DNA from: Thermoanaerobaculia bacterium
GTDB lineage: Bacteria > Acidobacteriota > Thermoanaerobaculia > Gp7-AA8
Assembly: GCA_963715895.1 (NCBI GenBank)
Contig: OY970284.1
Location: 5,167,600-5,231,599, forward strand
Direction of reading: 5' to 3'
Length of the DNA: 64,000 nt
In this document: one piece after another, positions 3,733-62,973 of the stretch
Layout: the number at the start of each line of letters is the position of its first letter
Numbering within the stretch: position 1 is the stretch's first letter
The notes under the pieces: generated by a model
Told to the model about the DNA's origin: nothing
The model's database searches: none
The model's input: only the letters and a program-made list of their open reading frames with translations
Made by a program: the position numbers and the translations under genes

Positions 3733-6700
3733 CTAAGGCAGATCGATCGTCGCCGTCTCCCCCGCCACGATCATCACCGGCAGGCTGCGGATGACCGTCC
3801 GGTCGGCGGCGATCGTCGAAATCAGATAGGAGCCGGGCGGGAGGGAGTCGTAGGGGCCGTTCAGCCCGATCTGGATGGGGCCGAGGAAGCGTTGCGTTAC
3901 GCCGCCGGGGACGTCCAACCGGACCATTTGCGCACTTCGGGCGCGGATCAGCAGCGAACCGGCGCGTGAAATGGCCACGCTCACCTCAGCGGGCGGCGTG
4001 GTGAAACTCATCATCCTCGGGACGTATCCGCGCGCATACGCACTGGCGTTATAACTTCCCGGCTTGAGCCACACTTTGAAGGTGCCCGTATCGACCTTCG
4101 TGGCCTGGCCGTTGAACTTGTGTGCCGCGTCGGTGACTGCCACGTTCCCGTCGACCGGCGAGCCGGTCGTGGCGTCGACGACGTGAATGAGCACCGCCGG
4201 ACCCTCCTCCAAGCGGATCTCGACGTCCGGCACGGCACCGTTGGCGATGACGATCTGCTGGGACGACGTGACGTACTGATCGCTGCTCACGTTCAGATCG
4301 TACGTGGCGTCGGCCAGCGCATCGATGGTGAATCGGCCGTCGGAATCGGTGCTTGTCGACCCGTATGCCGGCAACCGTGAGGTGACGGTGACGCGCGCGC
4401 TCGACACCGGCCCGCCTGTGGATGCATCGACGACATGGCCTCGCAGCAGCGCGCCGCGGATGTCGATGTCGAACGTTCCGCTCGCGGCCACCGTGTATTT
4501 CGTTCCAAAGGCGACGTTGGGAGCATTGACGCGTACGTCGTAGTCACCCGTGGACAGTCCGGAAGCGATGTAGCTGCCGTCGGACGAGATCATGGCATTG
4601 GCCACCTGCCGGTCCGCCGATGGCGGGATGCCCGGCTGCCTGCTCGGCATGAAAAGGACGCTGCCCGTCGTCACCAGCCCGCCGGCGCGGGTCACATGCC
4701 CGCTGACAGTTATCCCCGCGTCGAAATTCATCTCCACCGCCGGCGCAATGCCGTTCTCGATGGTGATGGTCTTTGAAGGCGCCATGCGGCGCTGCCCCGC
4801 CGCATTCAGAAACGCGTCGACCCGCACCCGGCCGTCGGGCATCCCGCTGAGCGTGAAGTTACCGCCGGAGTCGGCGAAGGCCTGATTGCGCGTCGTGTTG
4901 CCCGATGCTGTGACCGTCACCTGCGTGAACTGCTCCGGCGGAATTCCTGTCACCCGTCCGTTGATCGTCGCGCCGGTCTCCATCGTCAGCGTGACCGGTC
5001 CGCTCTGCGGCAGAACGACGTCACTGGCATCCGCGCTTACGTAGCCGTCCTTCCGCGCCGTCACCTTGTAGGTGCCATCCGCGAGTCCCTGCAGGACGAA
5101 CGACCCCTCGCCGTCCGAGCTCACCATCCCCACCGGCCGGCCATCGCCGCCGACCGTGGCCACATTCGCCATGGCGATCCCCTGGCCGGAGTGGTCGACG
5201 ACGCGGCCATGCAGCTCGCGGCCGGGATCGAGCTCGGCATCGAGATGAATGTCCTTCCCTGCCGTGATCGTGACCGGCTTGTGCAGGATGACGAAGCCCT
5301 GCTTCTGAAACTCGATCGTTTGATCCCCTTCCGCCAGCCCTTCGAGCGTGTACAGACCGTCGCCGTCCGTCGTGGCATTGCCGAAGAACGCCGAGCGCTG
5401 GAAGGCCAGGCGTACCTGCGCTCCGGAAACCGGGGCGCTCGCCGCGGTGACGCGGCCGGAGACCGTCGCACCGCGGTCGAGGGAGATATCGATGCCGCTG
5501 ACGGTCTTGCCATCCTCGACCGTGATGTCGCCGCGCGTAGCGGCCACATATCCGGTCGCATGAACCATGAGTTGCAACTGGCCGGGAGGGATATTGTCGA
5601 GGGCGTAGTGGCCATCGTCCGCATGGATCGGCTGACCGCCAGAGAACGAGCTCCCGGGACCGATGACGTTCGGGGTGGTGCGCCCCGGCAGGAGAATCGT
5701 GAAGTCGGTGACCGGCTGCTGCGTGGCCCGATCGAGGATGCGGCCCTCGACGCGTGCCCCCCGAGGCATCGTGATCGTCACATCGCTGGCCGGCGCGGTG
5801 ACGGATCGAGGCGTTGACGAAAGCCGGCGGTCGCTGGAGAACGCCGTGACCATCGTTGCGCCGGGGGCGATGCCCGCGATCCTGAATGTCCCGTCGGAAC
5901 CGGTGTTGGCATTCCGCGGCATGATCCCCGTCGGCGTCTCCACGATGGCATCGGCGACCGGCGTGCCGTCGGCAAGCACCACGCGCCCGCTGATCTCGAT
6001 GCCGCGGTCGACGTGCACGACGACGGTCGCCGTACGCGCGGACAGCACCTGATTCGGCATCCGCACCGGCGCCACGTCGTCGCCGAACACCATCAGATCG
6101 TGGCGTCCTTCGATGGTCCTGACGGCGACCAGTCCCTCCGCGTTGGTGCGGTGACAGTCAGGAAGGGAAGGATCAGCACAGGCGATGAAAGAACGATCCG
6201 CTCCCTGCGCCGCGCTGCGCGAAACGTTCACCTGCGCATTCGGCACGGGACGTTCGCGCTTGTCGAGGACACGCACCTGCGCGACGAAGCCGTGCACGAG
6301 CGTGATGTTGACGTTGTCGCGGACCTCGCCCGGCTGCCAGACTCGCGACGGCGAGCTGCCGGTGACGTAGTCGCGCTTCCATGCATAAACCGGCAACGGC
6401 AGCGAAGAAGCAGTTGTCGTGATACGCACGGCAAATTCGCCGGCCGCATTCGTCGATGTCGATCGCCCGCGCGCGAGGCCGGGGCTGCCCGCGGAGACAA
6501 ATGCTGCCGCCACCGGTTTCTTGTCCTCATCGAGGACATGCCCCCGCGCACGTGCAAACGGCTGCGCCGTAAAGACGCGGCTTCGCTTCGCCGGGAGCGC
6601 GATACTGGCCTGCTCGATCGCAAACGATGGATGCATCCCGTTGACCGAATAGGAGCGCGGGAGAAGCGAAGCGAACGTGAAGCTCCCCTTGGCATCAGTG

Positions 6701-8827: not shown

Positions 8828-8985
8828 ACGACGCAGCCCGCCCCTCTGACGACGCATCGATCCCTTCTCCGGAAGGCGCATGCGATGCGCCCGCCGTGGC
8901 CGAGAACCCTCCTCCCCGCCCCGAAATCCGCGCCGCCCTCGAGCCGACGTGCTGTGGGTCTGGTTGCGCGGACTGTCCTTTCTGA
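8824..8985 (+). CDS. Mini-protein ending in an oxidoreductase-like CCxSGCxxC motif
   Basis: A TTG start at 8824 overlaps the TGA of the upstream ORF (ATTGA). The C-terminus PRPEIRAALEPTCCGSGCADCPF resembles the Oxidored-like (PF09791-type) P..P...CC.SGC..C signature. Confidence 0.4.
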   Translation: MNDAARPSDDASIPSPEGACDAPAVAENPPPRPEIRAALEPTCCGSGCADCPF

Positions 8986-8993
8986 CGCGCTAC

Positions 8994-9094
8994 GCGCGTT
9001 GTCGGTTATCGGTTATCGGTTGTTGGTCCCGCGGCACAGCCGACCACGATGTGATTACCCGAATCCAACCGACAACCGATAACCGATAACCGAT
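8994..9094. repeat. Heptamer-arm hairpin element, copy A (CGGTTRT type)
   Basis: The left arm is GCGCGTTGTCGGTTATCGGTTATCGGTTGTTGG. The right arm is CCAACCGACAACCGATAACCGATAACCGAT. The loop is about 38 nt and contains CCGCGG. Confidence 0.85.
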
Positions 9095-9140
9095 TCCAGC
9101 GCAGCAGTAGACAAAACCTTCAGGCCAGACGTACCGTCTC

Positions 9141-9686
9141 ATGGTCATGCAAAAACTGTTGGTCTCCGCCGCCTTCATCCTCGTTGCGATCTCCGCGGCC
9201 GCGCAGCCGGCGCGCGATGTGTCCGATGCCAATGCCGCCGCGCGGCAACACCTGCGCGACATCGAGCCGGCGCTCACTCTGATGCGGAACGAGGCTGAGG
9301 CGCTGGGGAAGATCAACGAGATCCAGCGGGCCTTGTCGGGGCCGCCGCTGTCGTCGGTCGATCGCGCCTTCCGTCTCATCGACGACTACTCCGGCGGAAT
9401 TGGAAGGCGGGGGGTGAGCCTGCCGCATGAGCAGCAGATCATCGTCATGCACGCCCAGCGAATGATCCAGGATGCGCGGACCCTCACGCCGACCGACTAC
9501 GCCAAATTTCGCGACGACTTTCACCACCTCATCCAGCTCCCGATGGAGTTCGCCGTCGCCCGCGACCTTCAACAGCTCATGTCGCTGACGAACCTCTATA
9601 CGCAGATGACCAACCAGCTCCGCGTCATCGAGACCTCGTCGGTCAACGCCATCAACGGCGCGGCCATCGACTCGACGCGACAGTAG
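9141..9686 (+). CDS. Hypothetical secreted protein
   Basis: An N-terminal signal-like segment is present (MVMQKLLVSAAFILVAISAAAQP). No family was recognised. The gene is bracketed by hairpin elements A and B. Confidence 0.55.
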   Translation: MVMQKLLVSAAFILVAISAAAQPARDVSDANAAARQHLRDIEPALTLMRNEAEALGKINEIQRALSGPPLSSVDRAFRLIDDYSGGIGRRGVSLPHEQQIIVMHAQRMIQDARTLTPTDYAKFRDDFHHLIQLPMEFAVARDLQQLMSLTNLYTQMTNQLRVIETSSVNAINGAAIDSTRQ

Positions 9687-9687
9687 T

Positions 9688-9820
9688 TGCGCTATCGCGC
9701 GTTATCGGTTCTCGGTTGTCAGTTGTATCCGCGGGTCGGCTGCGGGTGATTGCAGTTTGATTGCACGGACGTGATGGTTCAACCGACAACCGATAACCGA
9801 TAACCGACAACGCGCGCAGC
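9688..9820. repeat. Heptamer-arm hairpin element, copy B (CGGTTRT type)
   Basis: The sequence is GCGCTATCGCGCG-TTATCGGTTCTCGGTTGTCAGTTGT ... CAACCGACAACCGATAACCGATAACCGACAA-CGCGCGCAGCGC. It lies between convergent genes. Confidence 0.85.
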
Positions 9821-9822
9821 GC

Positions 9823-10887
9823 CTAGAAACCCATCGCCGCGGCGTACAGCCCGTGAAAGTGATGCACGCCGTTCTCGCGCGGCGGGGAGTAGCGGCCGCT
9901 GTCGTAGGTCGATGAGCGGAGGCCGCGCTGGACGGCCTGGCAGATGTCGATGTCCTCGCGCTGGATCTCGTCGCTGAAGGCGATGGTCTCATCGATGCGC
10001 CGACGGACATCCGCAGCATCGGGATCCCGGAAGTGCCACTCGAAGATCGTCAACGTCCTCTCAGGCCCGAGGGGGACGATGAGGTTGGTCGAGAAGTTGT
10101 CGGGATAAACGTTCAGCATCAGGTTCGGCCAGATCCAGAAGTAGTCGATGTCATCCGACGGATCGTTGAGGCGGATGCGCTCGGGGCGCTTGAGCGGCGC
10201 GTGCTGGATCGAATAGTTAGCCCTCGTCTCGGTGCGATAGCCTGGGTAGTCGATCTCCCGGAAGAGGCCGGGATGAACGATGGGGATGTGATATCCCTCG
10301 AGATAGTTGTCGACGTAAACCTTCCAGTTGCAGTCGAGCGTCCAATCCTTGCGCGCCGCCAGGCGGTAGCCGGCGTAATCGCGCGGCGCAAGGCGCGTCA
10401 CCAGATCGCCGAGAAAATCGCCGAGCGGCGCGGCGGCGGGATCGAGGTTCACGAATACCAACTCGTTCCAGACCTCGACGCGGAAGCGCACCAGCGAGAA
10501 ATCGGCCCGATCGAAACACTCGATGCCGGCCATCTCCGGAGTCTGCAGGAGCCGGCCGTCGAGGCCGTAGGTCCAGCCGTGATAGCCGCACTGCAGCACG
10601 GGGCGTTTTCCCTCCCCTTTGGCAACAGGACCGGCGCGATGGCGGCAGACGTTCGAGAGCGCGCGCAACTCCCCATCCGCACCGCGGACGACGAGGACCG
10701 GTTCGTCCGCGATCGTGGTGGTGAAGAACTGCCCGGCGTCGCGCACCTGACCGGCGCGGCCGGCGAGTTGCCAGGTGCGGGCGAAGATGTTGCGGTTTTC
10801 GGCAGCCAGCACGGCTGGATCGACGTAGTAGTGCGACGGGATCGTGCGCGCAAAGGCGAGGCGGGGATCGAATCGGTAGCCGGTCAT
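9823..10887 (-). CDS. Rieske [2Fe-2S] aromatic-ring-hydroxylating oxygenase alpha-subunit-like protein
   Basis: The Rieske motif CRHRAGPVAKGEGKRPVLQCGYHGWTY (CxH...CxxH) is present, followed by a catalytic domain with YLEGYH. Confidence 0.85.
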   Translation of the reverse strand: MTGYRFDPRLAFARTIPSHYYVDPAVLAAENRNIFARTWQLAGRAGQVRDAGQFFTTTIADEPVLVVRGADGELRALSNVCRHRAGPVAKGEGKRPVLQCGYHGWTYGLDGRLLQTPEMAGIECFDRADFSLVRFRVEVWNELVFVNLDPAAAPLGDFLGDLVTRLAPRDYAGYRLAARKDWTLDCNWKVYVDNYLEGYHIPIVHPGLFREIDYPGYRTETRANYSIQHAPLKRPERIRLNDPSDDIDYFWIWPNLMLNVYPDNFSTNLIVPLGPERTLTIFEWHFRDPDAADVRRRIDETIAFSDEIQREDIDICQAVQRGLRSSTYDSGRYSPPRENGVHHFHGLYAAAMGF

Positions 10888-12182
10888 TTGCGTCGGACAA
10901 GAAGGTACAGCGGAATGGACAGAACGAGCACGCCGACGGCAAAGAGCGAGTTGTGCATGTCGCTCAGGATCGCCCCGATCAGGAAGGCGACGGAGGCCAG
11001 GAAGGCCAGCCCGGTGGTGAAGGGATGGCCGATGGCGCGGAACGGACGCGGCGCGTCGGGCACGCTGCGGCGCATGGCGAAGAGCGAGGCGAAGGAGAGG
11101 GCGTAGTTTGCCACGAAGAAGAACGCCAGGATGGCGATGACCTGCTCGAACCTGCCGGAGATGACGAAGACGGCGGCCAGGAGACTGCTGAAGAGCAACG
11201 CGATGTCCGGCGTCCCCCCTTTATTCACCTCGGCGGCGCCACGCCAGAAGAGGCGGTCGCGGCTCATGGCGAAAAGGACGCGCGGCGCCATCAGGACGTT
11301 CGAGTTCGCCGCGCTGAGCAGCGAGATGATCATGATCACGCGCAGGATCGGATCGCCGTAGGGACCGAAGAGATGGTGCGCCACCACCCCGGCCGCCATC
11401 TTCTGCCCGGCGATGCTGCCGAGCGGCACGACGCGCAGGAAGGCCACATTCACCAGGAGGTAGATGGCCATCACCGCAAACACGCCGCCGAACATCGCCC
11501 GCGGGATGTTGCGTCCCGAGTCCTTCACCTCTTCCGAGAAGTAGATGACCGCGGTCCAGCCGTCGTAGGTATAGATGACCGACTGCAGCGCGAGGATGAA
11601 GGCGATGACGAGCGAGCCTTCATGCACGGCGACGATCGATTCCGTCGTCGGATGGCGCGCGCCGAGGTAGAAACAGGCGGCGATGAGGAAGAGGAAGGCC
11701 AGCGCTTTCAGGAGACTGGTCGCGTCCTGCGTCCAGCCACCCCACCGCACGCCGAACCATTGGATGACCGTGAAGATGGCGATGACCGCCAGCGCGATCG
11801 GCTCGATGCCGCGCAGCGCGGGAAACAGCACCAGCATGTATTCGCCGACGACGATGGAGACCGCGGCCGTGGTGCCGCAGGTCGAGATCCAGTCACTCCA
11901 TCCGACCACCAGCCCGGCGTAGTCGCCCAGAGCGCGGCGGACGAAGACATACTGCCCTCCCGATTCAGGGACGAGCGTGCCCAGCTCCGCAAGGGCATTC
12001 GCGCCGAGGAGCGCGTACAGGCCACCGATGATCCAGACGGCCAGGAACGGCCAGAAGGTGGGGAGCTGTGCCGCGATGTCTCCGGGCGTCCGGAGAATCC
12101 CCGCGCCGATCATGTTCCCGACCGTCACGGCAAGGCCGAACGTCACGCCGAGGACGGTGAGGAGTTTCGCGCGAGGTGGCAA
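10884..12182 (-). CDS. APC superfamily amino-acid permease
   Basis: The protein is a 432-aa polytopic membrane protein. The N-terminus LTVLGVTFGLAVTVGNMIGAGILRTPGDIA is typical of amino-acid permeases. It overlaps the Rieske gene by 4 nt, indicating an operon. Confidence 0.85.
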   Translation of the reverse strand: MPPRAKLLTVLGVTFGLAVTVGNMIGAGILRTPGDIAAQLPTFWPFLAVWIIGGLYALLGANALAELGTLVPESGGQYVFVRRALGDYAGLVVGWSDWISTCGTTAAVSIVVGEYMLVLFPALRGIEPIALAVIAIFTVIQWFGVRWGGWTQDATSLLKALAFLFLIAACFYLGARHPTTESIVAVHEGSLVIAFILALQSVIYTYDGWTAVIYFSEEVKDSGRNIPRAMFGGVFAVMAIYLLVNVAFLRVVPLGSIAGQKMAAGVVAHHLFGPYGDPILRVIMIISLLSAANSNVLMAPRVLFAMSRDRLFWRGAAEVNKGGTPDIALLFSSLLAAVFVISGRFEQVIAILAFFFVANYALSFASLFAMRRSVPDAPRPFRAIGHPFTTGLAFLASVAFLIGAILSDMHNSLFAVGVLVLSIPLYLLVRRK

Positions 12183-12205
12183 GCGGGCGTAAGTGTAGCG
12201 CTGGC

Positions 12206-12323
12206 GGCTTCGCGCGTTGTCGGTTGTCGGTGTGGGGTTGTCGGTTGTCGGTTGTCAGTTGTTATCTGACCACCGATAACCGATAACCCGCACCCCACAC
12301 CGACAGCCAACAACAGCGAAGCC
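12206..12323. repeat. Heptamer-arm hairpin element, copy C (nested)
   Basis: The outer stem pairs GGCTTCGC with GCGAAGCC. The left arm is GTTGTCGGTTGTCGGTGTGGGGTTGTCGGTTGTCGGTTGTCAGTTGTTATC. The right arm is ACCGATAACCGATAACCCGCACCCCACACCGACAGCCAACAAC. Confidence 0.85.
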
Positions 12324-12333
12324 TCCGGAAACC

Positions 12334-13254
12334 CTACTCCCCTTCCTTCACCGACACCGGGCCGTTGTGCGTCGAGAGCGAGACGGTGCGGGCGCCGGAG
12401 CCGAAGTCGAGCTGCCGCGGCCAGCGGGGACCGAGGTCATCGTCGCTGCTGCTCTCGGCGTACGCCTTCTTCGCGGCGCGGCAGGAGGCGCCGCGGCAGC
12501 TCACAGGCGAGTTGCCGTCCGTCTCGACATGCACGCCCGACGCGTAGCTGGCCGGGACCTTGAGCGAGAGCGGGCCATTCTCCGTCGATGCGTCGAGGCT
12601 GCCGGTGGTCCATCCCGATCCGTCCAACTTCACCGAGATCGGGCCGTTGTTCGCGCGCAGCTTCACGTTGCCAGAGTTCCCTACGAACGAGATCGGGCCG
12701 TTCTCCGTGTGAATGTCGAGCGTCCCCGACGATGCCTTGACGGCGATCGGACCGTTCAGCGCATGCGCGGTCACGGAACCGTCGACGCCGTCGACCGAGA
12801 TGGGGCCATTGGTGGCGTCGAGGTCGATCTGGGCGTTGCGGGGGGCGAAGACGAGGAAGTAGATGATGGAGCGCGCGTCGTTGTCGATGTGGCCGGCGCT
12901 CACTTCGTTGCCGGTGACGTTGACGCGGAGATCGTTCACGTTTCCGAGCGCCGAGGCCTTGCAGGCCTTGACGCCGTAGGTCGATGAGGTCGTGCCGATG
13001 ACGCGGATCGATCCGTTCCGGTCGCTGCGCACCTTCAACGAGCGCAAGCTGCTTACCGGCACGTTCTCCTCGACCACCGGAACGTTGCGGTCGTTGTAGG
13101 TGACGTGAATCGCGCTGCAGTCGCGCACGTCCTGCCAGTCATCGGTCGACACCGAGAGACCGTGGCCCGAGTACTCGTTGCTATACGAATGAGATCCGGC
13201 GGCAAGGGGCAATGTGAGGGCGATGAGGGCAGGCAGAAGGGCGAATCGTCGCAT
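12334..13254 (-). CDS. Secreted beta-repeat protein, DUF4097/putative-adhesin-like
   Basis: The signal peptide MRRFALLPALIALTLPLAAG is present. NGPISV/NGPISF/NGPIAV repeats recur about every 20 aa. Confidence 0.6.
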   Translation of the reverse strand: MRRFALLPALIALTLPLAAGSHSYSNEYSGHGLSVSTDDWQDVRDCSAIHVTYNDRNVPVVEENVPVSSLRSLKVRSDRNGSIRVIGTTSSTYGVKACKASALGNVNDLRVNVTGNEVSAGHIDNDARSIIYFLVFAPRNAQIDLDATNGPISVDGVDGSVTAHALNGPIAVKASSGTLDIHTENGPISFVGNSGNVKLRANNGPISVKLDGSGWTTGSLDASTENGPLSLKVPASYASGVHVETDGNSPVSCRGASCRAAKKAYAESSSDDDLGPRWPRQLDFGSGARTVSLSTHNGPVSVKEGE

Positions 13255-13399
13255 GGTGGTTCCTCCGTTCGATCGTTGGACGCCGGGACATCGGGGAAGT
13301 TAGCAGGGGCTGATACGATTGCCGTCTTCCGGAGTTGCTGCCGACAGCAAGAAACTCACATCAGAGTCCGCGGCAGCCTGATCGCCTAGAATCCCCGCT

Positions 13400-14371
13400 G
13401 TGTCCGGCTTTCTCAAACGCGCCGTGCGGCGCCTTCCGTGGCTGAGCGGTCTTCACCGTTACATCGTCGCCCTCGAGGCGGAGGGCGACCAGTTGCGGGC
13501 GGATCTGGCGCACTGGAAGACGTGGATGTCGCCGGGGCACTTCTATTCGCCGATCCCGTCGATGGACGAGATCCGTGCGAGGGAGGGGGAGCTGTTCGGG
13601 ACGCCTCCGCCGTCGCTGCCGGGGATCGATCTACGCGCCGAGGGGCAGGTCGCGCTGGTCAGAGAGCTGGCGGCCTTCTATCCCGAGATGCCCTTTCCTC
13701 GGGAGCAATCGCCGGAGACGCGCTACTGGTTCGAGAACTGGGCCTACTCCTACGCCGACGCCGTCTATCTCTACTCGATGCTGCGCAGGCTCCTGCCGCG
13801 GCGCGTCATCGAAGTCGGCTCCGGATTTTCATCGGCGGCGATGCTCGACACCGCCGACCGCTGGTTGCCGGAGACGTCATTCACCTTCATCGATCCCGAT
13901 ACATCGACGCTCGATGCGCTGTTGCGTCCGCCCGATCGTGAACGCGTCACGGTCATCCGCTCCCGTCTGCAGGAAGTGCCGCTCCAGACATTCGACGCGT
14001 TGGCGGCGAACGACGTCCTCTTCATCGACTCGACGCACGTTTCGAAGACCGGCAGCGACGTGAACCGCATCGTCTTCGAGATCCTCCCCCGCCTCGCCGC
14101 GGGGGTGCTCGTCCACTTCCACGACGTCTTCTATCCGTTCGAGTATCCGAAGGAGTGGGTCTACGAAGGCCGCGCCTGGAATGAGGACTACATCCTCCGG
14201 GCCTTCCTCGAGTACAACGATTCCTTCGAGATCATCCTCTTCGGCACCTGGCTGGCGCGATTCCATCGCGATCTCCTCAAGGAGCTGATGCCGCTGACCC
14301 TGGAGAATCCGGGCGGAAGTCTGTGGCTGAGGAAAACTGCCGCTGGCGCGGCGTTGTCGGTTGTCGGTTGA
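13400..14371 (+). CDS. Class I SAM-dependent methyltransferase-like protein
   Basis: A SAM-binding-like motif is present (VIEVGSGFSSAAMLD), with DVLFIDSTH downstream. The start is GTG. The last codons (ALSVVG*) read into hairpin element D, so the C-terminus is uncertain. Confidence 0.6.
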   Translation: MSGFLKRAVRRLPWLSGLHRYIVALEAEGDQLRADLAHWKTWMSPGHFYSPIPSMDEIRAREGELFGTPPPSLPGIDLRAEGQVALVRELAAFYPEMPFPREQSPETRYWFENWAYSYADAVYLYSMLRRLLPRRVIEVGSGFSSAAMLDTADRWLPETSFTFIDPDTSTLDALLRPPDRERVTVIRSRLQEVPLQTFDALAANDVLFIDSTHVSKTGSDVNRIVFEILPRLAAGVLVHFHDVFYPFEYPKEWVYEGRAWNEDYILRAFLEYNDSFEIILFGTWLARFHRDLLKELMPLTLENPGGSLWLRKTAAGAALSVVG

Positions 14372-14424
14372 TTGGCTGCGCGCGTTGTCACCCGACAACT
14401 GATCACCGACAACCGACAACCGGC
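14350..14424. repeat. Heptamer-arm hairpin element, copy D
   Basis: The left arm is GCGTTGTCGGTTGTCGGTTGAT and the right arm is ATCACCGACAACCGACAACCGGC. An inner mini-hairpin GTTGTC-ACCC-GACAAC is present. It lies between convergent genes. Confidence 0.85.
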
Positions 14425-16347
14425 CTACTGCGTAATCACCAACTCCACCCTCCGATTCTGCTGCCTTCCCGCGGCCGTCTTGTTCGTCGCGACCGGCGCG
14501 TCCTCTCCGCGGCCGGCGGCGGTGATGTGATCCGACGGGATTCCGGCCGAGACGAGGTAGTCGCGCACGGCGTTGGCGCGCTTCTCGGACAAGGCCTGAT
14601 TCTTCGCCGCGGTGCCGACGGTATCCGTATGCCCTTCGACGGCGATCTTGAGCGACGGGTCGGTCTGGAGCTGTTTGGCGATCTTCGTCAGCGTCGACTT
14701 CGCGCCGGCCTTGAGCGACGTCTTGCCGGTATCGAAAAGGATTCCGCCGCTGAGGGTGACGATGATTCCGCGCTGCTCGCTGCGCGTCGATGCGATCCGG
14801 GCAAGCTCGTTCTGGACCCGCAGAATCCGCGCCTCGGCATCCCGCTCGGCGAGCAACCCCTTCGTTTGGTCGAGCTGGGCCTGGGTCTGTTCCGCCGCCG
14901 CCTTCGTCTGATCGAGCTGCGCCTGGGTCTGTTGCGCTGCCGCCTGCGCCTGTTGCGCGGCAGCCTGGGCCTGCTGCGCTTGAACATTCGCCTGCTGCGC
15001 CTGTGCATTGGCCTGCTGGGCCTCGGCCTGGGCCGCCTGCGCCTGCCGCTCGGCATCCTCCGCCTTCTGTCTCAGCGCGGCCGCCTCGGCGTCGGCCTGC
15101 TGGCGGCGAGCCTGTGCCGCGGCGACCGCTTCGTGACGCTGTCTGGCGCGATCGGATCGCGCCGCGTCGTCGCTTTCGAGCGATTGCCGCAACGAGTCGA
15201 GCTCCGCCTGCCGCGCCAGGAGGTCAGCCTGCCGTTGCGAGATGACGTCGGGGCTGATCGCTCCCGACTGCTGCGCGGCGGTCAGATCGCCGCGCAGGCG
15301 CGTGATCCCGGCCTGCATGGCCTCGGCGTTGGCGCGCTCGCGATCGTGGATCGCGCGCAGCGAAAGCTCCTGATCCTCGATCTGCAGCCGGATGATCTCG
15401 ACATCCGAAGGGGATGAGGTGGCGATCGCGGTCTCATACCTGCTGTACGACTCGTCGAGCTGACGCTCCGCGGCGATGCGCGCCTGACGGTCGGCTTCGA
15501 CGCGTGCTTCCGCGGCCCGCCGATTCTCATCGATCTGCTGCCGCAGCCGTTCCACCTCGGCCGCCTGCGCCTGACGGCTGGCTTGTTCGGCGGCAAGTGC
15601 CTGCTGCAGCGCTATTGACCGGCGCTCCGACTCCTCCCGCTGCGCCCGTTCGGCGGCGGCCTGACGCTCGCTGGCCGCCTGCGCCAGACGGGTGCGATCG
15701 AGCTGGATGCCGGGGAGAGCCCGGTTCGATTGCGCGAGACGGGCGAGATAGAACGCACGCCGCCCGATCATCTCGGCGCGATATGCCAGGTGGTCTCCGA
15801 CATCGCTGTTCGTCGTACTCCGTGATACCCGTTTGGCGCTGTCGATGTATCGCTCGGCGTTCCCGAGGTCGTTGTCCGGAACCAGGTCGAGCGCACCCGC
15901 GTCTTTGGCTCGATCGACCGCCAACTGTGCCGTGGCGATGCGGTCCTTCGTGGTGGCGCCGCGGCTGAATTCGATTGTTGGCGACTCTTCGGCCAGCAAC
16001 GTGATGTTGGACGACCCACCGAAGCGCTGGATGTCGGCCTGCAGACCGTGGATCGCTGTATTCGTGCTCAGCCACCGCGCCTTCGCCCCCGCGGCCTCGG
16101 CGGCGATGGTCGCCTCGATGGCGCGCATCTGCGCCTCATTGCGCCTCGATGGCGTGTTCGAGCTCCAGTTCTCCTGGGCAAAGCGCGCCCGGTACGCCGC
16201 GTCGTCGTAAAGGCTCTTGGCGAACACCTGCGCTCCCGCCGCATCCGCCGACGCGAGCGCCTGTTGCGCCATCACCAGATCCGTCGGCTGCGCCTCTACC
16301 GACACAGCAACCAACATGGCGAGCACTGCCGTTCTCAGGATGTGCAT
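14425..16347 (-). CDS. OmpA-family protein with a long coiled-coil / Q-A-rich region
   Basis: The C-terminal OmpA domain is present (LFDTGKTSLKAGAKSTL...VEGHTDTVGTAAKNQALSEKRANAVRDYL...NRRVELVI). The N-terminal signal peptide is MHILRTAVLAMLVAVSVEA. The central region is AQAAQAEAQQANAQAQQANVQAQQAQAAAQQ. Confidence 0.85.
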   Translation of the reverse strand: MHILRTAVLAMLVAVSVEAQPTDLVMAQQALASADAAGAQVFAKSLYDDAAYRARFAQENWSSNTPSRRNEAQMRAIEATIAAEAAGAKARWLSTNTAIHGLQADIQRFGGSSNITLLAEESPTIEFSRGATTKDRIATAQLAVDRAKDAGALDLVPDNDLGNAERYIDSAKRVSRSTTNSDVGDHLAYRAEMIGRRAFYLARLAQSNRALPGIQLDRTRLAQAASERQAAAERAQREESERRSIALQQALAAEQASRQAQAAEVERLRQQIDENRRAAEARVEADRQARIAAERQLDESYSRYETAIATSSPSDVEIIRLQIEDQELSLRAIHDRERANAEAMQAGITRLRGDLTAAQQSGAISPDVISQRQADLLARQAELDSLRQSLESDDAARSDRARQRHEAVAAAQARRQQADAEAAALRQKAEDAERQAQAAQAEAQQANAQAQQANVQAQQAQAAAQQAQAAAQQTQAQLDQTKAAAEQTQAQLDQTKGLLAERDAEARILRVQNELARIASTRSEQRGIIVTLSGGILFDTGKTSLKAGAKSTLTKIAKQLQTDPSLKIAVEGHTDTVGTAAKNQALSEKRANAVRDYLVSAGIPSDHITAAGRGEDAPVATNKTAAGRQQNRRVELVITQ

Positions 16348-16404
16348 GGGTACCTCCTCGTTTGCCGGACGACCCCTGCAAGTGTGATGCGCAGCGGCGC
16401 AACC

Positions 16405-16431
16405 GGAGCGCTGGCGTCTCGCCAGCGCTCC
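16405..16431. terminator. GGCGTCTCGCC-family hairpin downstream of livF
   Basis: GGAGCGCTGGC-GTCTC-GCCAGCGCTCC has an 11-bp stem and lies 6 nt beyond the livF stop. No U-tract follows. Confidence 0.55.
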
Positions 16432-18999: not shown

Positions 19000-19016
19000 G
19001 CCCGGCCCCCGAAAGG

Positions 19017-19117
19017 CAATGTTGAATGTTGAATGTTCAATGTTGAATGTTGAATGAGGCTGCGCTCCGCCACAGGGCATTCAACATTCAACATTGAACA
19101 TTCGACATTCAACATTT
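19017..19117. repeat. Heptamer-arm hairpin element, GAATGTT flavour (livH-livM junction)
   Basis: The left arm is AATGTTGAATGTTGAATGTTCAATGTTGAATGTTGAATG. The loop is AGGCTGCGCTCCGCCACAGGG. The right arm is CATTCAACATTCAACATTGAACATTCGACATTCAACATT. Confidence 0.9.
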
Positions 19118-19123
19118 CGGTTC

Positions 19124-20038
19124 TCAAACCTTCTCCGCCTGATACTTCCCAAACAGTCCCGACGGACGGAACAGCAGGATGGCGATCAGGATGATGAAAG
19201 CAATGGCGTCGCGGTAGCTGGAGAACTGGCTGCCGCCGACGAACGATTCGATGATGCCGATGATCAGCCCTCCGATCACGGCCCCCGGAACGTTGCCGAT
19301 CCCGCCGAGCACGGCAGCGATGAAGGCCTTGAGGCCGGGCATGATCCCCATGAGCGGATCGATCTTCGGATACGAGAGGCCGTAGAGGATGCCGGCCACC
19401 GCGGCGAGCACCGAGCCGATGATGAAGGTCATGGAGATGACCCGGTCGGTCGGGATCCCCATCAGCGAGGCTGTCTCGAAGTTGTATGAGACGGCGCGCA
19501 TGGCCCGCCCGAACTTCGTGCCGTAGATGATGTACTGCAAGAGGCCCATGAAGATCACCGCCACGACCAGGACGATGATCTGGTAGTTGGTCGTGGTCAC
19601 GCCGCCGAAGGTGATGAGGTGCTTCTCGACGAGCGTGGGGAAGAATTTCGGATCGGCGCCGAAGACGAACTGGCCGCCGTACTCGAGCAGAAACGAGACA
19701 CCGATGGCGGTGATCAGCGATGCGATGCGCGGGGCGTCGCGCAGAGGCCGGTAGGCGATCCGTTCGTTGAGGAACCCGAACAGGCCGCAGACCACCATGG
19801 CGATGAGCATGACCAGCCCCGCGTAACCCCAGCCGAGGGGACCGCTATGGTTCGGGAGCATCCGGGCGGCGTAGCCGCCGGCGTAGAAGCCGACGAAGGC
19901 GCCGAGCATGAACACGTCGCCGTGAGCGAAGTTGATCAGCTTCAGGATGCCGTACACCATCGTGTAGCCGAGGGCGATCAGCGCGTAAATCGCGCCGACG
20001 GCAATCCCGTTCAGTAGATTCTGGAGGATCTCCTGCAT
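19124..20038 (-). CDS. livH: Branched-chain amino-acid ABC transporter permease
   Basis: It is a 304-aa polytopic protein with the typical LivH start MQEILQNLLNGIAVGAIYALIALGYTMVYG. Confidence 0.9.
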   Translation of the reverse strand: MQEILQNLLNGIAVGAIYALIALGYTMVYGILKLINFAHGDVFMLGAFVGFYAGGYAARMLPNHSGPLGWGYAGLVMLIAMVVCGLFGFLNERIAYRPLRDAPRIASLITAIGVSFLLEYGGQFVFGADPKFFPTLVEKHLITFGGVTTTNYQIIVLVVAVIFMGLLQYIIYGTKFGRAMRAVSYNFETASLMGIPTDRVISMTFIIGSVLAAVAGILYGLSYPKIDPLMGIMPGLKAFIAAVLGGIGNVPGAVIGGLIIGIIESFVGGSQFSSYRDAIAFIILIAILLFRPSGLFGKYQAEKV

Positions 20039-20059: not shown

Positions 20060-20198
20060 GGGCTCGCCCTGTTGTCGGTTGTCGGTTATCAGTTGTCAGA
20101 CCGAAAAAAAAGTCCGGCGAACGCTACTCGCCGGACCGGGTTGTGTAAAGACAAATTCGTGTGTCGGGTGTCGGACCGATAACCGACAACCGACAACT
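20060..20198. repeat. Heptamer-arm hairpin element, copy E (livK-livH junction)
   Basis: The left arm is CCTGTTGTCGGTTGTCGGTTATCAGTTGTCAG and the right arm is GTGTCGGACCGATAACCGACAACCGACAAC. The loop carries an intrinsic terminator. Confidence 0.85.
20104..20136 (-). terminator. Rho-independent terminator after livK (intra-operon attenuator)
   Basis: The minus strand reads GTCCGGCGA-GTAGCGT-TCGCCGGAC followed by T8. Confidence 0.8.
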
Positions 20199-21582: not shown

Positions 21583-21622
21583 GGGGAACCGCGTGGGGCC
21601 GAGGGGGAACCGCGTGGGGCCG
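21583..21622. repeat. Short tandem duplication upstream of livK
   Basis: GGGGAACCGCGTGGGGCCG occurs twice with a 21-nt period (21583-21601 and 21604-21622). Confidence 0.85.
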
Positions 21623-28613: not shown

Positions 28614-28790
28614 GGGGTCGGTTGTCGGGAGTCGGTTGTCGGTTGTCGGTTGTCGGTTGTCGGTTGTCGGGGAGGTGGGAGTTGACCGGCTCATCTCCAC
28701 CCCACGCGAGAACCGATCACCGGGAACCGACAACCGATAACTGACAACCGACAACTCGATACAGAGGAACCGACACGACAACCGAGAACC
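28614..28790. repeat. Heptamer-arm hairpin element, copy F (longest; divergent intergenic region)
   Basis: The left arm has five consecutive perfect TCGGTTG units (28632-28666). The right arm is GAACCGATCACCGGGAACCGACAACCGATAACTGACAACCGACAAC...GAACCGACACGACAACCGAGAACC. Confidence 0.85.
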
Positions 28791-33286: not shown

Positions 33287-33310
33287 CGCAGTCTCGCGGT
33301 CTCGCGGCAT

Positions 33311-33726
33311 GTTCCTCCGCCTGCGTGTCGTGTTCCTCCGCCTGCGTGTCGTGTACCTTCGCCCGCGTGTCGTGTACCTTCGCCCGCGTGTCGTGCTCCT
33401 CCGCCTGCGTGTCGTGTACCTTCGCCCGCGTGTCGTGCTCCTCCGCCTGCGTGTCGTGTACCTTCGCCTGCGTGTCGTGAACCTTCGCCTGTGTGTCGTG
33501 AACCTTCGCCTGCGTGTCGTGTCCCTCCGCCGGCGTGTCGTGTACCTTCGCCTGTGTATCGTGTACCTTCGCCTGCGTGTCGTGTTCCTCCGCCCGCGTG
33601 TCGTGTACCTTCGCCTGCGTGTCGTGTACCTTCGCCTGCGTGTCGTGAACCTTTGCCGGCGTGTCGTGTACCTTCGCCGGCGTGTCGTGTTCCTCCGCCT
33701 GCGTGTCGCGTTACTCCGCCTGCTGG
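33311..33726. repeat. 21-bp tandem repeat array (about 19.5 units), non-coding minisatellite
   Basis: The unit consensus is GTACCTTCGCCTGCGTGTCGT, with variants GTTCCTCCGCC, GCTCCTCCGCC, GAACCTTCGCC and GTCCCTCCGCC. Units follow head-to-tail with no spacers. All six frames are open across the array. Confidence 0.95.
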
Positions 33727-33984
33727 ACAAAACCGCGGGGGGTCACACCTTCGTATTTCGCAGAGCGCTAAACCACTGACCTCGCACGACTTGAGCACAT
33801 CAAGATCAACGCCGCGACCAGTCAGGTAGTTATTCGCATTTCACCGTCGCCGGGAAATGTCGCGCCGTATTTGCGGTAGCGCAGGAACGCTGTTTCGCGG
33901 CATTGAAGGTCGAGTTGCCGCGAGACCCCGCAACCGGCAGACCCCGTAACCGCGTCCTCGCAACCGCGAATACACTGTCGCGGC

Positions 33985-39372: not shown

Positions 39373-39670
39373 CGGGAAGAGGTGCGGATACGACCGGTCG
39401 ATATTCGCGCCCCTTCCGTTGCGGGGCGCGTCTTCACGCTACCCGCTAGCTGCGGCGAAACCACCACCAGTTGCGCGGCGCGTTCATCGTCCGAGGAGAG
39501 TAACGGCGAAGATCGGGAGTGTCAACTGGGTGAGAATGCAGGCTGAGCGCTCGATCCATTCCGGCGCAAGTCTTGCTGAATCGACGAGTGCTCTTGCGTA
39601 CCGCCGAAAAAAGGAGCATCGTTACAACCTTCCCTGGTCAGTTGTCCCAAGCAGATCGTGGAGGTGCCGC

Positions 39671-42600: not shown

Positions 42601-42754
42601 GCTCTGGCAGATCGGTTTCCCGATCCATTGGGGCTTCGCGGGCGATCCCGGCCATACCGGGCCGCTCGCCAACTTCCTGACCGCCTCGGTAGGCGACCCA
42701 AACACATGGACGCCCGAATACAAGGCGTTCCTCGTGAACCTCGACAAGGCGTGA
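39671..42754 (+). CDS. fdnG: Formate dehydrogenase major (alpha) subunit, Tat-exported, selenocysteine-containing (in-frame TGA at 40244..40246)
   Basis: A GTG start follows GGAGG. The Tat signal is VELSRRGFLKATTIGGAVALGFDLTKAHA. The 4Fe-4S motif CPYCAVSCG is present. Track ORFs 39419..40246 and 40259..42754 share a frame and are joined by TGA in the conserved context QARV-U-HGPTVASLAATFGRGAMTN. Confidence 0.9.
40247..40290 (+). promoter_or_regulatory. Candidate bacterial SECIS hairpin
   Basis: The stem GGUGGCC (40258-64) pairs with GGCCGCC (40270-76) around the loop AGUUU. It starts 11 nt after the UGA. An outer pairing CCACGG/CCGUGG (40254-59 with 40285-90) is also possible. Confidence 0.5.
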
Positions 42755-45642: not shown

Positions 45643-45772
45643 GGAGCGCTGGCGTCTCGCCGGCTGGCCCAGCGGCGTCTCGCCGCTGAGAGGGGTTACC
45701 AGCGAAGGTATGGTGACTCGCCAGCCCGGAGGCGAGACGCCTCCGGGCCAGCCGGCGAGACGCCAGCGCTCC
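45643..45772. repeat. Composite palindrome of the GGCGTCTCGCC family
   Basis: The outer 27-nt arms are GGAGCGCTGGCGTCTCGCCGGCTGGCC (45643-69) and its exact reverse complement (45746-72). The inner hairpins are CAGCGGC-GTCTC-GCCGCTG and CCGGAGGC-GAGAC-GCCTCCGG. Confidence 0.9.
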
Positions 45773-54285: not shown

Positions 54286-54355
54286 TCGGGGTTGCTGGGT
54301 TGCTGGATTGCTGGATTGCTCGGTAACCCTGTAACCCAGCAACTCAGCAACTCCG
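54286..54355. repeat. Repeat-arm hairpin element, 8-nt GGRTTGCT flavour
   Basis: The left arm is GGGTTGCT GGGTTGCT GGATTGCT GGATTGCT. The loop is CGGTAACCCTGTA. The right arm is ACCCAGCAACTCAGCAACTCC. Confidence 0.85.
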
Positions 54356-62238: not shown

Positions 62239-62973
62239 ATGAGAATCGTCTGGATCGTGACCGCACTCCTCGTAATTTCCGCCTCGGCGTTTGCGCAACC
62301 CTCCGGCCAGTACCTCCGGATGCAGGGCTTTCCGCAACACGGTTATATCGAGATCCCCGATGACGTCCTGCTCGACACCCCCTCGATGACGGTCGAGGCC
62401 TGGGTCTCGGTTCGTGACGCGCACGGCGGTACGGGCTGCTCCTCGATCGCGGGGAAGGGATTCCAGACCGGTTGGTGGCTCGGACTGTGCGGCACGACGA
62501 TGCGCAGCTACTTCAACGGCTCGTCAAGCCTCAGGGACGGCGGCGTCATCCCGGATGTGCCCACCACCGTCTGGATCCACATCGCGGCCGTGACGGATGA
62601 GACGACACACACACGCAAACACTACATCAACGGAAATCTCGTGTCCCAGGGAGCAGAGGCTCCCCGGTCCGTGTCGACGCTCCCCATGCGCATCGGGAGC
62701 GACCCGAACTGGGACTTCATGCCCGAGGGAGGCATCGACGACTTGAGGATCTGGAAGGTTGCCCGGACGCAGGAGCAGATTCGCCAGACCATGTTTACGG
62801 GCTTCATTCCGGAAGCGAACGACGTCACCGGCGTGTTCCAGGGACTCGAAGCCTGGTACCGATTCGAAGGCAACGCCTTTGACTCGTGGCGTACGCACCA
62901 CGGAACGATCGTCGGAACCGGAATCAGCTTCGCCCAAGCCCCCCCCTTCCGGCGGCACTCGGCGGGACACTGA
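62239..62973 (+). CDS. Secreted LamG / concanavalin-A-like lectin domain protein
   Basis: The signal peptide is MRIVWIVTALLVISASAFAQP. Typical LamG strings are present (MTVEAWV..., WIHIAAV..., GGIDDLRIWKVARTQEQIRQ). Confidence 0.6.
   Translation: MRIVWIVTALLVISASAFAQPSGQYLRMQGFPQHGYIEIPDDVLLDTPSMTVEAWVSVRDAHGGTGCSSIAGKGFQTGWWLGLCGTTMRSYFNGSSSLRDGGVIPDVPTTVWIHIAAVTDETTHTRKHYINGNLVSQGAEAPRSVSTLPMRIGSDPNWDFMPEGGIDDLRIWKVARTQEQIRQTMFTGFIPEANDVTGVFQGLEAWYRFEGNAFDSWRTHHGTIVGTGISFAQAPPFRRHSAGH

Follow-up and report, generated by a model that had tools for sequence, protein, structure and literature searches.

What are the repeated hairpins found at gene boundaries in this Thermoanaerobaculia genome, and how do they arise? 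The window (the whole stretch of 64,000 nucleotides analysed here) was originally predicted to contain a multi-copy family of intergenic hairpins, with seven loci that share one heptamer-arm architecture. We find that this family is real, based on motif counts, predicted folds, and the gene map, and all seven loci are present: CGGTTRT/AYAACCG heptamers build six hairpins and one solo arm. The motif (CGGTTRT)2, with at most one mismatch, has 29 matches (0.04 are expected from dinucleotide shuffles of the window). GGTTRTCGG also has 29 matches, 28 of them within the seven loci (0.85 expected from dinucleotide shuffles). GC-rich flanks are likewise confirmed; the clamp GCGCGTTRTC occurs five times (0.8 expected), every time within elements A-D. 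Tandem Repeats Finder (TRF) reports period 7, with 2.4-12 copies, at all CGGTTRT loci. Pairing is seen at six of the seven loci, the loops being 6-82 nt, and every paired element has the CGGTTRT arm 5′ and the AYAACCG arm 3′. The predicted RNA folds of the tandem-armed elements range from -45 to -99 kcal/mol (z -5.0 to -10.7), and equally good folding occurred in 0 of 200 shuffles. All CGGTTRT loci are intergenic on a GC3-based gene map supplemented with Pfam, except that the left arm of D overlaps the 3′ end (the last ~19 nt) of the methyltransferase gene at 13400-14371. The features are as follows, with minimum free energies (MFE) in kcal/mol.

8994-9094, no strand assigned: element A, with a GCGCG clamp (MFE -54.9, z -6.9); left arm 8998-9027 (GTTGTCG/GTTATCG, 3.4 units), a ~40-nt loop, and right arm 9066-9094 (AACCGAT, 4 units), the arms being 26 nt and 96% complementary; the stop of a small plus-strand ORF (8985) is upstream and the start of ORF 9141 downstream.
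9688-9820, no strand assigned: element B, with the clamp GCGCTATCGCGCGTT...AACGCGCGCAGCGC (MFE -71.5, z -5.7); left arm 9697-9727, right arm 9778-9815; between the convergent stops of ORF 9141-9686 (plus) and a Rieske oxygenase gene, 9823-10887 (minus).
12206-12323, no strand assigned: element C, in which outer and inner heptamer arms form a nested hairpin (MFE -84.2, z -10.7); starts 10 nt past the stop of gene 12334-13254 (minus), its far end ~23 nt short of the TTG start of an amino-acid permease gene (12182, minus).
14350-14424, no strand assigned: element D (MFE -45.4, z -5.0); at the convergent stops of the methyltransferase gene 13400-14371 (plus) and an OmpA-family gene, 14425-16347 (minus).
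19011-19123, no strand assigned: AATGTTG hairpin, (AATGTTG)5.6, a 21-nt loop, and (CATTCAA)5.6 (MFE -67.4, z -9.9); occupies the gap between LivH-like and LivM-like permease genes on the minus strand.
20060-20198, no strand assigned: element E, arms 20069-20099 and 20171-20198 with a 77-nt loop (MFE -68.1, z -7.9); from the stop of a liv-type binding-protein gene (20202, minus) to the start of the LivH-like gene (20038, minus).
20098-20140, minus strand: canonical intrinsic terminator in the E loop, GGTCCGGCGAGTAGCGTTCGCCGGACC plus T8.
28614-28790, no strand assigned: element F, the largest copy (MFE -98.7, z -10.0); left arm (GTCGGTT)7.7, right arm degenerate with 12 units; between the divergent starts of an enoyl-CoA hydratase gene (28562, minus) and ORF 28867 (plus).
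54289-54353, no strand assigned: 8-mer hairpin, (GGRTTGCT)4.5 and (AGCAACYC)2.6 (MFE -48.4, z -8.0); between an MFS transporter gene (stop 54236) and an acetyl-CoA synthetase gene (start 54411).
63771-63795, plus strand: G/T-rich solo arm, GTTATCG, 3.3 units; 3 nt past the stop of a cyclase gene, 62886-63767 (plus).

No complementary arm is found downstream of the solo arm. The hairpin design goes beyond CGGTTRT, as the AATGTTG hairpin (arms of 46 nt, 91% complementary) and the GGRTTGCT hairpin have a like architecture. In a liv-type ABC operon, element E separates the binding-protein gene from the first permease gene, and the AATGTTG hairpin separates the two permease genes. A REP-like placement is supported.

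Arms of separate elements are as alike as the two arms inside one element; the left arm of A and the reverse-complemented right arm of B match at 30 of 31 positions. Within-element co-evolution of arms is not detected, as complementarity is no higher within than between elements. The loops of the six CGGTTRT copies are unrelated to one another, and most are only 8-40 nt and have no recognisable signal. The A and B loops were thought to share CCGCGG and GTGATT, but the sharing is not significant (P = 0.054, shuffle) and the loops align poorly. The stems are ~95% Watson-Crick and equally stable on either strand. G.U pairs have no strand bias (68 sense and 60 antisense) and folding energies of the sense and antisense strands do not differ, so nothing here points to strand-specific RNA selection.

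Several known classes do not account for the elements. No T-run is found after the 3′ arms, and the sole canonical terminator is the separate hairpin within the E loop. Integron attC sites are imperfect palindromes after a cassette ORF, with the inverse core RYYYAAC 5′ and the core GTTRRRY 3′; here the GTT arm is 5′ and the AAC arm 3′ (the reverse order), the units depart from GTTRRRY, and no integrase is found in the window. With Rfam, no element is matched in the whole window at the gathering threshold. In E-value mode the region 8900-14500 gives only miRNA-precursor look-alikes on C, with 27-44 bits (thresholds are 100-150).

The design is common in related genomes. With a detector that accepts any unit, 727 kb of related metagenome contigs yield 42 tandem-armed hairpins (~1 per 16 kb), and the window yields 7, some of its nine loci being merged or missed. 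Hairpins in the related contigs have periods of 7 (29), 8 (12), and 9 (1), and the modal arm has 4.3-4.6 units (~4.4), near 31 nt. Period-7 arrays occur in inverted pairs in 70 of 167 cases. The units are highly diverse, with dozens of unrelated ones within one lineage. CGGTTRT and GAATGTT turn up again at sites that are not orthologous and in further genomes, including other Acidobacteriota MAGs. A tblastx comparison of the window with 115 GTDB loci from a motif scan found no close relative; TrpE homologs carry the name Thermoanaerobaculia. Exact matching of the small ORF (with either of two starts), the Rieske protein, LivH, and the enoyl-CoA hydratase gave no recorded protein, whereas LivF led to strain L196 and the product of gene 12334 to a Logan contig. 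An assembly artefact is unlikely, since independent assemblies, isolate genomes (Algivirga, Halpernia), and the literature all contain the design.

Based on gene calls that beyond the window come from a crude GC3 filter, the tandem-armed hairpins are in co-directional (32), convergent (9), divergent (6), and intragenic (1) contexts. The distance from the upstream stop codon to the 5′ arm is 0-20 nt, and about 15-45 nt separate the A/C-rich 3′ arm from the next start; in A, C, and E this spacing is 21-47 nt. The G-rich arm is 5′ in 35 hairpins and the order is opposite in 3. This strong polarity is specific to tandem-armed hairpins, as plain inverted repeats do not have it. Unpaired arrays show a similar tendency, being G-rich after stops (12 vs 3) and C-rich before starts (11 vs 6).

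Orthologous sites keep the design even as they differ in unit, copy number, loop, and loop orientation. As anticipated, unit number differs between relatives: the window has 4 left-arm units at site D where L116 has 3, and 3.7 right-arm units at E where L116 has 4, and site B differs between the window, L119, and L120. Site C has a tandem-armed hairpin in every relative, and it persists across genomes with only 60-90% protein identity. Its units may be the 7-mer GGTTRTC, the 8-mers GGTTGCWN or GGTTGCCN, or the 7-mer GTGCTGA, and the 8-mer unit family of 54289-54353 is found at site C in relatives. Between the window and L116 (93% protein identity), four of five hairpins are remodelled.

At the LivH-LivM junction, stop and start overlap in distant relatives, with no hairpin gap. 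The units at this junction are AATGTTG in the window, L117, L118, and L120, GAAGGCA in L116, GAAGGAT in L119, and GAAATTG in L137. The AATGTTG palindrome core is inverted in L196, a strain with 97.9% DNA identity. Loop orientation falls into two classes (window, L117, and L118; L120 and L196), the flipped loop being known from metagenome assemblies. Among four AATGTTG orthologs, both sides changed in only 3 of 41 pairs, too few to weigh as compensatory change. Copying of the unit from flanking coding sequence is not general, and GAATGTT is present at an unrelated site in L111 as well. The livH end carries GAAGGTT, which resembles GAAGGCA, GAAGGAT, and GAATGTT; this is suggestive at that single site.

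The bracketing of ORF 9141-9686 by A and B, a feature of the original prediction, looks incidental. In L119 the ORF is accompanied by only one hairpin (A is missing), in L120 a single hairpin occurs without the ORF, and in L123 both are lacking and site B is empty. Other palindromes, clearly multi-copy, also occupy insertion sites of the family.

The terminator in the E loop is conserved without heptamer arms in L118, L120, L144, L165, L147, and L138. This comparison of orthologs shows it to be ancestral, with complementary arms gained on both flanks. Its orientation is identical in the window, L116, and L196.

We give about an even chance to the following explanation: the elements are palindromes of the kind formed by cyanobacterial STRRs and by the Xanthomonas GGGAATC inverted pairs, remodelled in place at gene boundaries, with a REP-like role in mRNA. 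Because the design is kept while unit, copy number, and loop change, and arms are added around a terminator, the sequences point to local slippage and template switching and not to transposition. The elements would be built and remodelled in situ at gene boundaries, in part by replication slippage in a 7-8-nt register and otherwise by template switching or recombination between the two arms. Such arm-to-arm exchange could keep complementarity, swap units, and flip the loop, and a palindrome could grow outward around a pre-existing hairpin. The hairpins would be transcribed within mRNAs, with the G/U-rich arm first, starting no more than about 10 nt from the stop codon, and the A/C-rich arm ahead of the next start. 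Stems of 25-45 bp, with length set by unit number, may block 3′-5′ exonucleases, be cut by RNase III, or both, and so may uncouple the fates of neighbouring cistrons as REP/BIME elements might. We infer this role in mRNA stabilisation or processing from position and analogy.

Some observations do not fit easily. The E-loop terminator would end most transcripts ahead of the 3′ arm, so that the two E arms would often be in different RNAs. Slippage and template switching alone leave the polarity (35 vs 3) unaccounted for, as well as the recurrence of CGGTTRT and GAATGTT at non-orthologous sites and in other genomes. There is also no sense-strand G.U excess or difference between sense and antisense energies.

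The lack of strand bias in near-perfect stems is what would be seen if the hairpins were a functionless, self-perpetuating by-product of heptamer slippage and imperfect-palindrome correction, tolerated only in intergenic DNA. We regard this as possible but doubtful. The very fast turnover relative to L116, the very diverse units, and the empty sites in some relatives are consistent with it, and heptamers are the commonest long simple repeats in prokaryotes, according to Mrazek 2007 as cited in PMC4679880. However, the design persists at individual sites across 60-90% protein identity, placement is tight (from just past the stop codon to just ahead of the ribosome-binding site), the arm length has a mode near 31 nt, and the strict polarity is limited to tandem-armed hairpins.

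It is unlikely that the elements are non-autonomous mobile hairpins (REPIN- or MITE-like) with arms serving as terminal inverted repeats for a remote transposase, e.g., RAYT/Y1. MITEs have terminal inverted repeats, a target-site duplication, and internal sequence common to the copies. The original prediction allowed for a MITE with target-site duplications, but comparison of empty and filled versions of site B reveals no duplication, and the loops are unrelated. E cannot have come from one contiguous insertion, since its arms flank the ancestral terminator on both sides. Orthologous sites bear different units, and the arms are non-palindromic and lack a GTAG head. Pfam detects no transposase, RAYT, or integrase domain in ~50 window ORFs, a weak point because the window is only ~1% of the genome. 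Mobility could explain why copies share arms and the terminal clamp GCGCGTTRTC, why arms are as alike between elements as within them, and why elements are present or absent at orthologous sites (L123 empty at B, L119 without A). It could also explain the same units at unrelated sites and in other Acidobacteriota MAGs, and the use of the same insertion sites by other multi-copy palindromes.

The 7-8 nt period, the ~4 units, and a G/U-rich arm that is transcribed first could indicate sites for a single-strand RNA-binding protein with a footprint of ~7 nt (a cold-shock-domain protein, S1, or Rho), with the hairpin as a switch. The protein might capture the first-transcribed G/U-rich arm, or the C-rich arm might be masked, and folding, termination, or translation would be decided in this way. 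The A/C-rich arms adjoin start codons, like TAACTGA repeats (PMC4679880), and solo arms and biased unpaired arrays exist. Dozens of unrelated units in one lineage argue against a sequence-specific binder, it is arm complementarity and not any sequence that is conserved, and no candidate protein emerged; we consider this switch improbable.

To a similarly small degree we entertain a dedicated polar process, distinct from generic slippage, that in many phyla would create tandem-armed palindromes de novo where genes meet. Examples might include a heptamer-binding protein or a polymerase activity linked to repair or transcription. Such a process would suit the G-rich arm being 5′ on either strand, the 7-8-nt period, and the ~31-nt arm whatever the unit, as well as arrays added on both sides of a terminator, a hairpin where stop and start once overlapped, and recurrent loop flipping. 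Action at the DNA level, with arms recombining to flip the loop as a recombinase-independent invertible switch or with cruciforms affecting replication or transcription, is very improbable: the AATGTTG loop and inner arms are inverted in L196 and L120 and the E loop bears an orientation-dependent terminator, but that terminator does not change direction between the window, L116, and L196, most loops have no recognisable signal, and the flip may be no more than a rare neutral event or a choice made during assembly.

Whether or not the elements are remodelled palindromes with a role in mRNA, any mechanism proposed must account for the polarity rule. The orthologous series show birth, growth around a terminator, unit swap, and flipping, and are a natural system for palindrome dynamics. 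In practice, such hairpins can be expected to interrupt assemblies of soil metagenomes and to mislead searches there for small RNAs, terminators, and microRNA-like structures.

Among known systems, the REP, BIME, and REPIN elements of Enterobacteria and Pseudomonas are also abundant intergenic palindromes at gene 3′ ends and in cistron gaps of ABC operons (e.g., malE-malF and hisJ-hisQ), and are likely mRNA stabilisers or partial terminators. The likeness to REP/BIME elements that was originally proposed holds for position (E and the AATGTTG hairpin) and does not extend to their defining features. RAYT genes usually have REPs on their flanks. Each REP is a palindromic unit in its own right, 20-40 nt long and headed by a conserved GTAG, and is spread by RAYTs (PMC3116915, PMC2817692), whereas palindromic units, the GTAG head, and RAYT spread are not seen for the tandem-heptamer elements. 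In Haemophilus influenzae, the hmw 5′-UTR was shown experimentally to form an (ATCTTTC)n hairpin cut by RNase III; this processing sets expression, and change in repeat number needs the RNA hairpin and transcription (PMC12721329). There too a heptamer repeat is one arm of a long RNA hairpin. However, only one arm is repetitive, the pyrimidine-rich arm is 5′ (the opposite polarity), and it is a single phase-variable locus and not a genome-wide class.

TAACTGA direct repeats occur in Beggiatoaceae, Cyanobacteria, and Bacteroidetes (MacGregor 2015, PMC4679880), and Csp, S1, and CsrA were proposed to act on them. The A/C-rich arm (TAACCGA, CAACCGA, and once TAACTGA) is 0-2 bases from this unit, but a complementary partner is the rule here and is absent there (1 inverted case in 170 sets; PMC4679880). 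The unit in the window is YAACCGA and has a partner arm. TAACTGA repeats end a few nt ahead of a start codon, while the distance to the start is 21-47 nt in A, C, and E.

The cyanobacterial STRRs were reportedly described by Mazel in 1990, and their units include CCCCAGT, TTGGTCA, and CAACAGT. Such 7-bp repeats between cistrons can fold as hairpins (Nostoc/Anabaena hupS-hupL, and upstream of hoxW), with proposed roles in transcript stability, translational coupling, and termination, although function is unproven (PMC2670836). As in Thermoanaerobaculia, they are tandem, intergenic or intercistronic, and hairpin-forming; the phylum and the units differ. The window loci have the hallmarks of this type: a unit of ~7 nt, at least 2 tandem intergenic units, a nearby complementary convergent array capable of forming a stem-loop (6 of 7 loci), and copy number and sequence that differ among close relatives at one site. 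We did not find polarity, unit turnover at orthologous sites, or loop flipping described for STRRs in the literature.

Xanthomonas genomes have ~186 GGGAATC arrays each, 89-93% intergenic (Rehm et al. 2015, PMC4692102). They include 70-75 convergent inverted pairs per genome, one array per strand, with four units preferred. Sense-strand arrays lie at most 50 bp past a stop and antisense-strand arrays upstream of an ORF, and their length and sequence differ between close species. The units are G-tract-rich and were interpreted as G-quadruplex formers (PMC4692102). Convergent heptamer pairs, ~4 units, and arrays near stop codons are shared with the Thermoanaerobaculia elements, but most units of the latter (CGGTTRT, AATGTTG, and others) have no G-tracts, and neither CGGTTRT nor AATGTTG has a GGG run. 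Quadruplexes therefore explain neither the four-unit preference nor the polarity, and the sharing of the hairpin design by many non-quadruplex units removes this explanation of convergent pairing as well. The design was first taken to be undescribed, but hairpins or inverted pairs of heptamer arrays were already known from cyanobacteria (PMC2670836) and Xanthomonas (PMC4692102), and the architecture is of the same kind. The units CGGTTRT, AATGTTG, and GGTTGCWN of Thermoanaerobaculia (Acidobacteriota) are additions to it, and this fast-evolving repeat class is thereby extended to a new lineage, in which it shows a strict polarity.

The seven loci for which the original prediction described hairpins with tandem heptamer arms are borne out by sequence, motif counts and RNA folds. 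Read at their coordinates, the 5′ arms of elements A to F are runs of GTTGTCG/GTTATCG and the 3′ arms are complementary runs of CGACAAC/CGATAAC. Tandem Repeats Finder and an inverted-repeat scan identified two hairpins with other units, so the tandem-armed architecture (a palindrome whose arms are short tandem repeats) is wider than the predicted CGGTTRT heptamer.

Tandem-armed loci of the window
8994-9094: element A, between a stop (8985) and a start (9141)
9688-9820: element B, between convergent stops
12206-12323: element C, among minus-strand genes, between a stop and a permease start
14350-14424: element D, between convergent stops
19011-19123: AATGTTG hairpin, (AATGTTG)5.6/(CATTCAA)5.6
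20060-20198: element E, among minus-strand genes, between a stop and the LivH start
28614-28790: element F, between divergent starts
54289-54353: 8-mer hairpin, (GGRTTGCT)4.5/(AGCAACYC)2.6
63771-63795: solo arm with no partner

The window has 29 matches to a pair of adjacent CGGTTRT units when one mismatch is allowed (0.04 expected from dinucleotide shuffles). GGTTRTCGG also has 29 matches (0.85 expected), 28 of them inside the seven loci, and all five copies of the outer clamp GCGCGTTRTC (0.8 expected) are in A to D. Predicted RNA folds of A to F reach −45 to −99 kcal/mol (z-scores −5.0 to −10.7), a stability matched by 0 of 200 shuffles for any of the six; the AATGTTG and GGRTTGCT hairpins also fold strongly. 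The hexamers said to be common to the loops of A and B were not significant (P = 0.054). Rfam contains no family match for the hairpins.

Based on a GC3-based gene map and Pfam, the window is unremarkable chromosomal DNA, and none of the genes of the 64 kb encodes a transposase, RAYT, integrase or reverse transcriptase. Proteins named "Thermoanaerobaculia bacterium" share 97% identity with its TrpE, which places the window in Acidobacteriota. Every hairpin is intergenic, and tandem-armed hairpins are the main class among long intergenic palindromes. In 8 of 9 loci, no more than about 10 nt separate a stop codon from the start of the G/T-rich arm. A liv-type ABC operon has the order binding-protein gene, element E, LivH, AATGTTG hairpin, LivM, LivG, LivF; in enterobacterial transporter operons, REP elements occupy positions like those of these two hairpins. 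The left boundary of element A is a short ORF (~8830-8985, plus strand) ending in CCGSGCADCPF, which is probably a real gene for a small cysteine-rich protein; over its C-terminal 22 residues, conservation is 91% even in a distant metagenome locus (L144).

The window also encodes a SECIS_3 element (40241-40299, plus strand; 76.7 bits, threshold 63) directly 3′ of a TGA that divides a molybdopterin formate-dehydrogenase gene into ORFs 39419-40246 and 40259-42754, very likely one gene encoding selenocysteine. A 21-nt tandem repeat (33310-33723, plus strand; 19.7 copies, 87% match) makes up most of ORF 33309-33779, giving 7-residue repeats in a 156 aa protein with no Pfam match. In-frame 21/42-nt repeats (14859-15044, minus strand; 2-4.6 copies, 73-86% match) in an OmpA-family gene (14425-16347) encode a repetitive segment of the protein and have no relation to the heptamer hairpins. 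Upstream of the liv-type binding-protein gene, the 178-nt gap contains an exact 21-nt direct duplication, GGGGAACCGCGTGGGGCCGAG x1.9 (21583-21622).

In GTDB genomes, (CGGTTRT)3 matches at least 115 loci in many phyla, those among the matches listed including Acidobacteriota (Thermoanaerobaculia, Blastocatellia), Bacteroidota, Poribacteria and Chloroflexota, along with Lysobacterales. About 30 of the loci listed have the hairpin arrangement; the CGGTTRT arm is 5′ in 30 and 3′ in 3 of the hairpins listed, many of which stop just short of an ATG. We also analyzed 80 related loci (51-93% protein identity, 727 kb) found by searching metagenomes with the Rieske protein. A detector accepting any unit found 42 tandem-armed hairpins, about 1 per 16 kb, with periods of 7 (n=29), 8 (n=12) and 9 (n=1), an arm mode of 4.3-4.6 units, a median loop of ~23 nt, and highly diverse units (GAAGGCA, TGATGAG, AGTGCTG, GTAAGGAG and others). 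Inverted pairs account for 70 of the 167 period-7 arrays. On gene calls that are crude in these loci, 32 hairpins lie between co-directional genes, 9 between convergent and 6 between divergent genes, and 1 is intragenic, with 0-20 nt between the upstream stop and the 5′ arm.

The arms have a polarity. In the unbiased any-unit set, G exceeds C in the 5′ arm of 35 hairpins and the reverse holds in 3 (p = 7e-8). An independent inverted-repeat finder gave 51 versus 6 G-rich-5′ for repeats overlapping tandem arrays; plain inverted repeats in the same DNA, at 32 versus 30, have no polarity. The rule is present in every gene context, including 9/9 convergent hairpins. Because the two strands fold equally well, it cannot result from hairpin thermodynamics.

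At orthologous sites in related metagenome contigs (the L numbers), the design persists and the units change. At site C no relative lacks a tandem-armed hairpin, placed ~20 nt before the permease start. The window builds it from the 7-mer GGTTRTC; L116 and L118-L123 use the 8-mers GGTTGCWN or GGTTGCCN, and L124 uses the 7-mer GTGCTGA. The LivH-LivM junction has AATGTTG in the window, L117, L118 and L120, GAAGGCA in L116 (the closest metagenome contig, 93% protein identity), GAAGGAT in L119 and GAAATTG in L137; loops and flanks have also been replaced, and in the distant L147, L165, L144 and L138 stop and start overlap or adjoin. At site B, the window, L119 and L120 have hairpins of the CGGTTRT type, L116 has one made of ~19-nt GCGCAGACAACGCGCG repeats, L117, L121, L122 and L124 have unrelated palindromes, and L123 is empty. 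The clamp module itself can turn into the repeating unit; hairpins at L116 11060-11200 and 11800-11930, flanking a small ORF, are partly ~19-nt clamp-module repeats, GCGCAGACAACGCGCG(AA), not heptamers. At site E, the binding-protein and LivH genes are separated by an intrinsic terminator, which six relatives keep without arms; in the window, L116 and L196, complementary heptamer arrays bound it on both sides, and therefore the arms did not come from one contiguous insertion.

The window and its relatives have other palindrome families too. A perfect palindrome with 37-bp arms (CGGAGGACGGTCGAAGGACCCCCGGCTGCTAACCCGG...) lies at 2419-2525, with a relative after the Rieske gene in L122 (~11060-11200), at the element B site. 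A third family, GGAGCGCTGGCG(TCTCGCC), has one copy with 42-nt arms and a direct repeat inside it (45643-45772) and a short copy after LivF (~16375-16405), where L196 has a longer one (4715-4831) at its contig end. The multi-copy palindrome GGAGTGCGCGTGGCAGAGCCACCGCTTTGGGAGG... stands alone after the Rieske gene in L121 (3144-3257) and is nested in a CGGTTGT hairpin loop in L120 (~11095-11225); palindromes therefore insert into palindromes.

The strain L196 is 97.9% identical to the window over 4.7 kb of DNA. Its element E is conserved, with two uncompensated substitutions, and the core of its AATGTTG palindrome (loop and inner arms; 2028-2136, versus window 19008-19126) is inverted. Loop orientation separates the window, L117 and L118 from L196 and the more distant L120 (1814-1913), and we read the inversion as a flip-flop of a small palindrome. 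The inversion and unit differences are known from metagenome assemblies, with arms (≤45 nt) shorter than typical reads; the design recurs in independent assemblies and isolates. Watson-Crick pairs make up ~95% of stems, and arms of different elements resemble each other as closely as do the arms of one element. Together with the unit swaps and the two-sided arms of E, these data point to DNA-level processes that would build the hairpins, preserve their symmetry and reshape them. Slippage in a 7-8-nt register is one candidate; arm-to-arm template switching or recombination is the other.

Position and analogy suggest that the hairpins act on mRNA decay as REP-like RNA stem-loops, because they span from just past a stop codon to just ahead of the next ribosome-binding site, their design stays at fixed sites despite sequence change, and two lie within a transporter operon. 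Such stem-loops would halt 3′-5′ exonucleases or undergo RNase III cutting, so that neighboring cistrons would decay separately. Perfect stems of 25-45 bp are RNase III substrates. In Haemophilus, a heptamer-repeat hairpin was shown to be cut by RNase III (PMC12721329), and for the STRR hairpins of cyanobacteria transcript stability or translational coupling was proposed (PMC2670836). Against a simple RNA reading, G·U pairs lack strand bias (68 sense, 60 antisense), the terminator in the E loop would often place the two arms in different transcripts, and the very fast turnover is equally expected of a neutral self-perpetuating palindrome.

The suggested REP/BIME resemblance holds for positions, including the transporter operon, but not for membership: we could assign the window hairpins to none of REP/REPIN, MITE, attC, intrinsic terminator or G-quadruplex. 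Nor is the arm design undescribed, as had been thought. In cyanobacteria, 7-bp STRR repeats fold into hairpins of this architecture at the hupS-hupL gap among other places (PMC2670836), and Xanthomonas genomes each have 70-75 convergent inverted pairs of this kind among ~186 GGGAATC arrays, which prefer four units and adjoin stop codons (PMC4692102). Beggiatoaceae, Cyanobacteria and Bacteroidetes have TAACTGA direct repeats ahead of start codons (PMC4679880), and the A/C-rich arm is 0-2 bases away from that unit. What seems new is the hairpin families of Thermoanaerobaculia, four-unit arms and convergent pairing also with units unable to form quadruplexes, a polarity rule specific to tandem-armed hairpins, two-sided growth around a terminator, and loop flipping.
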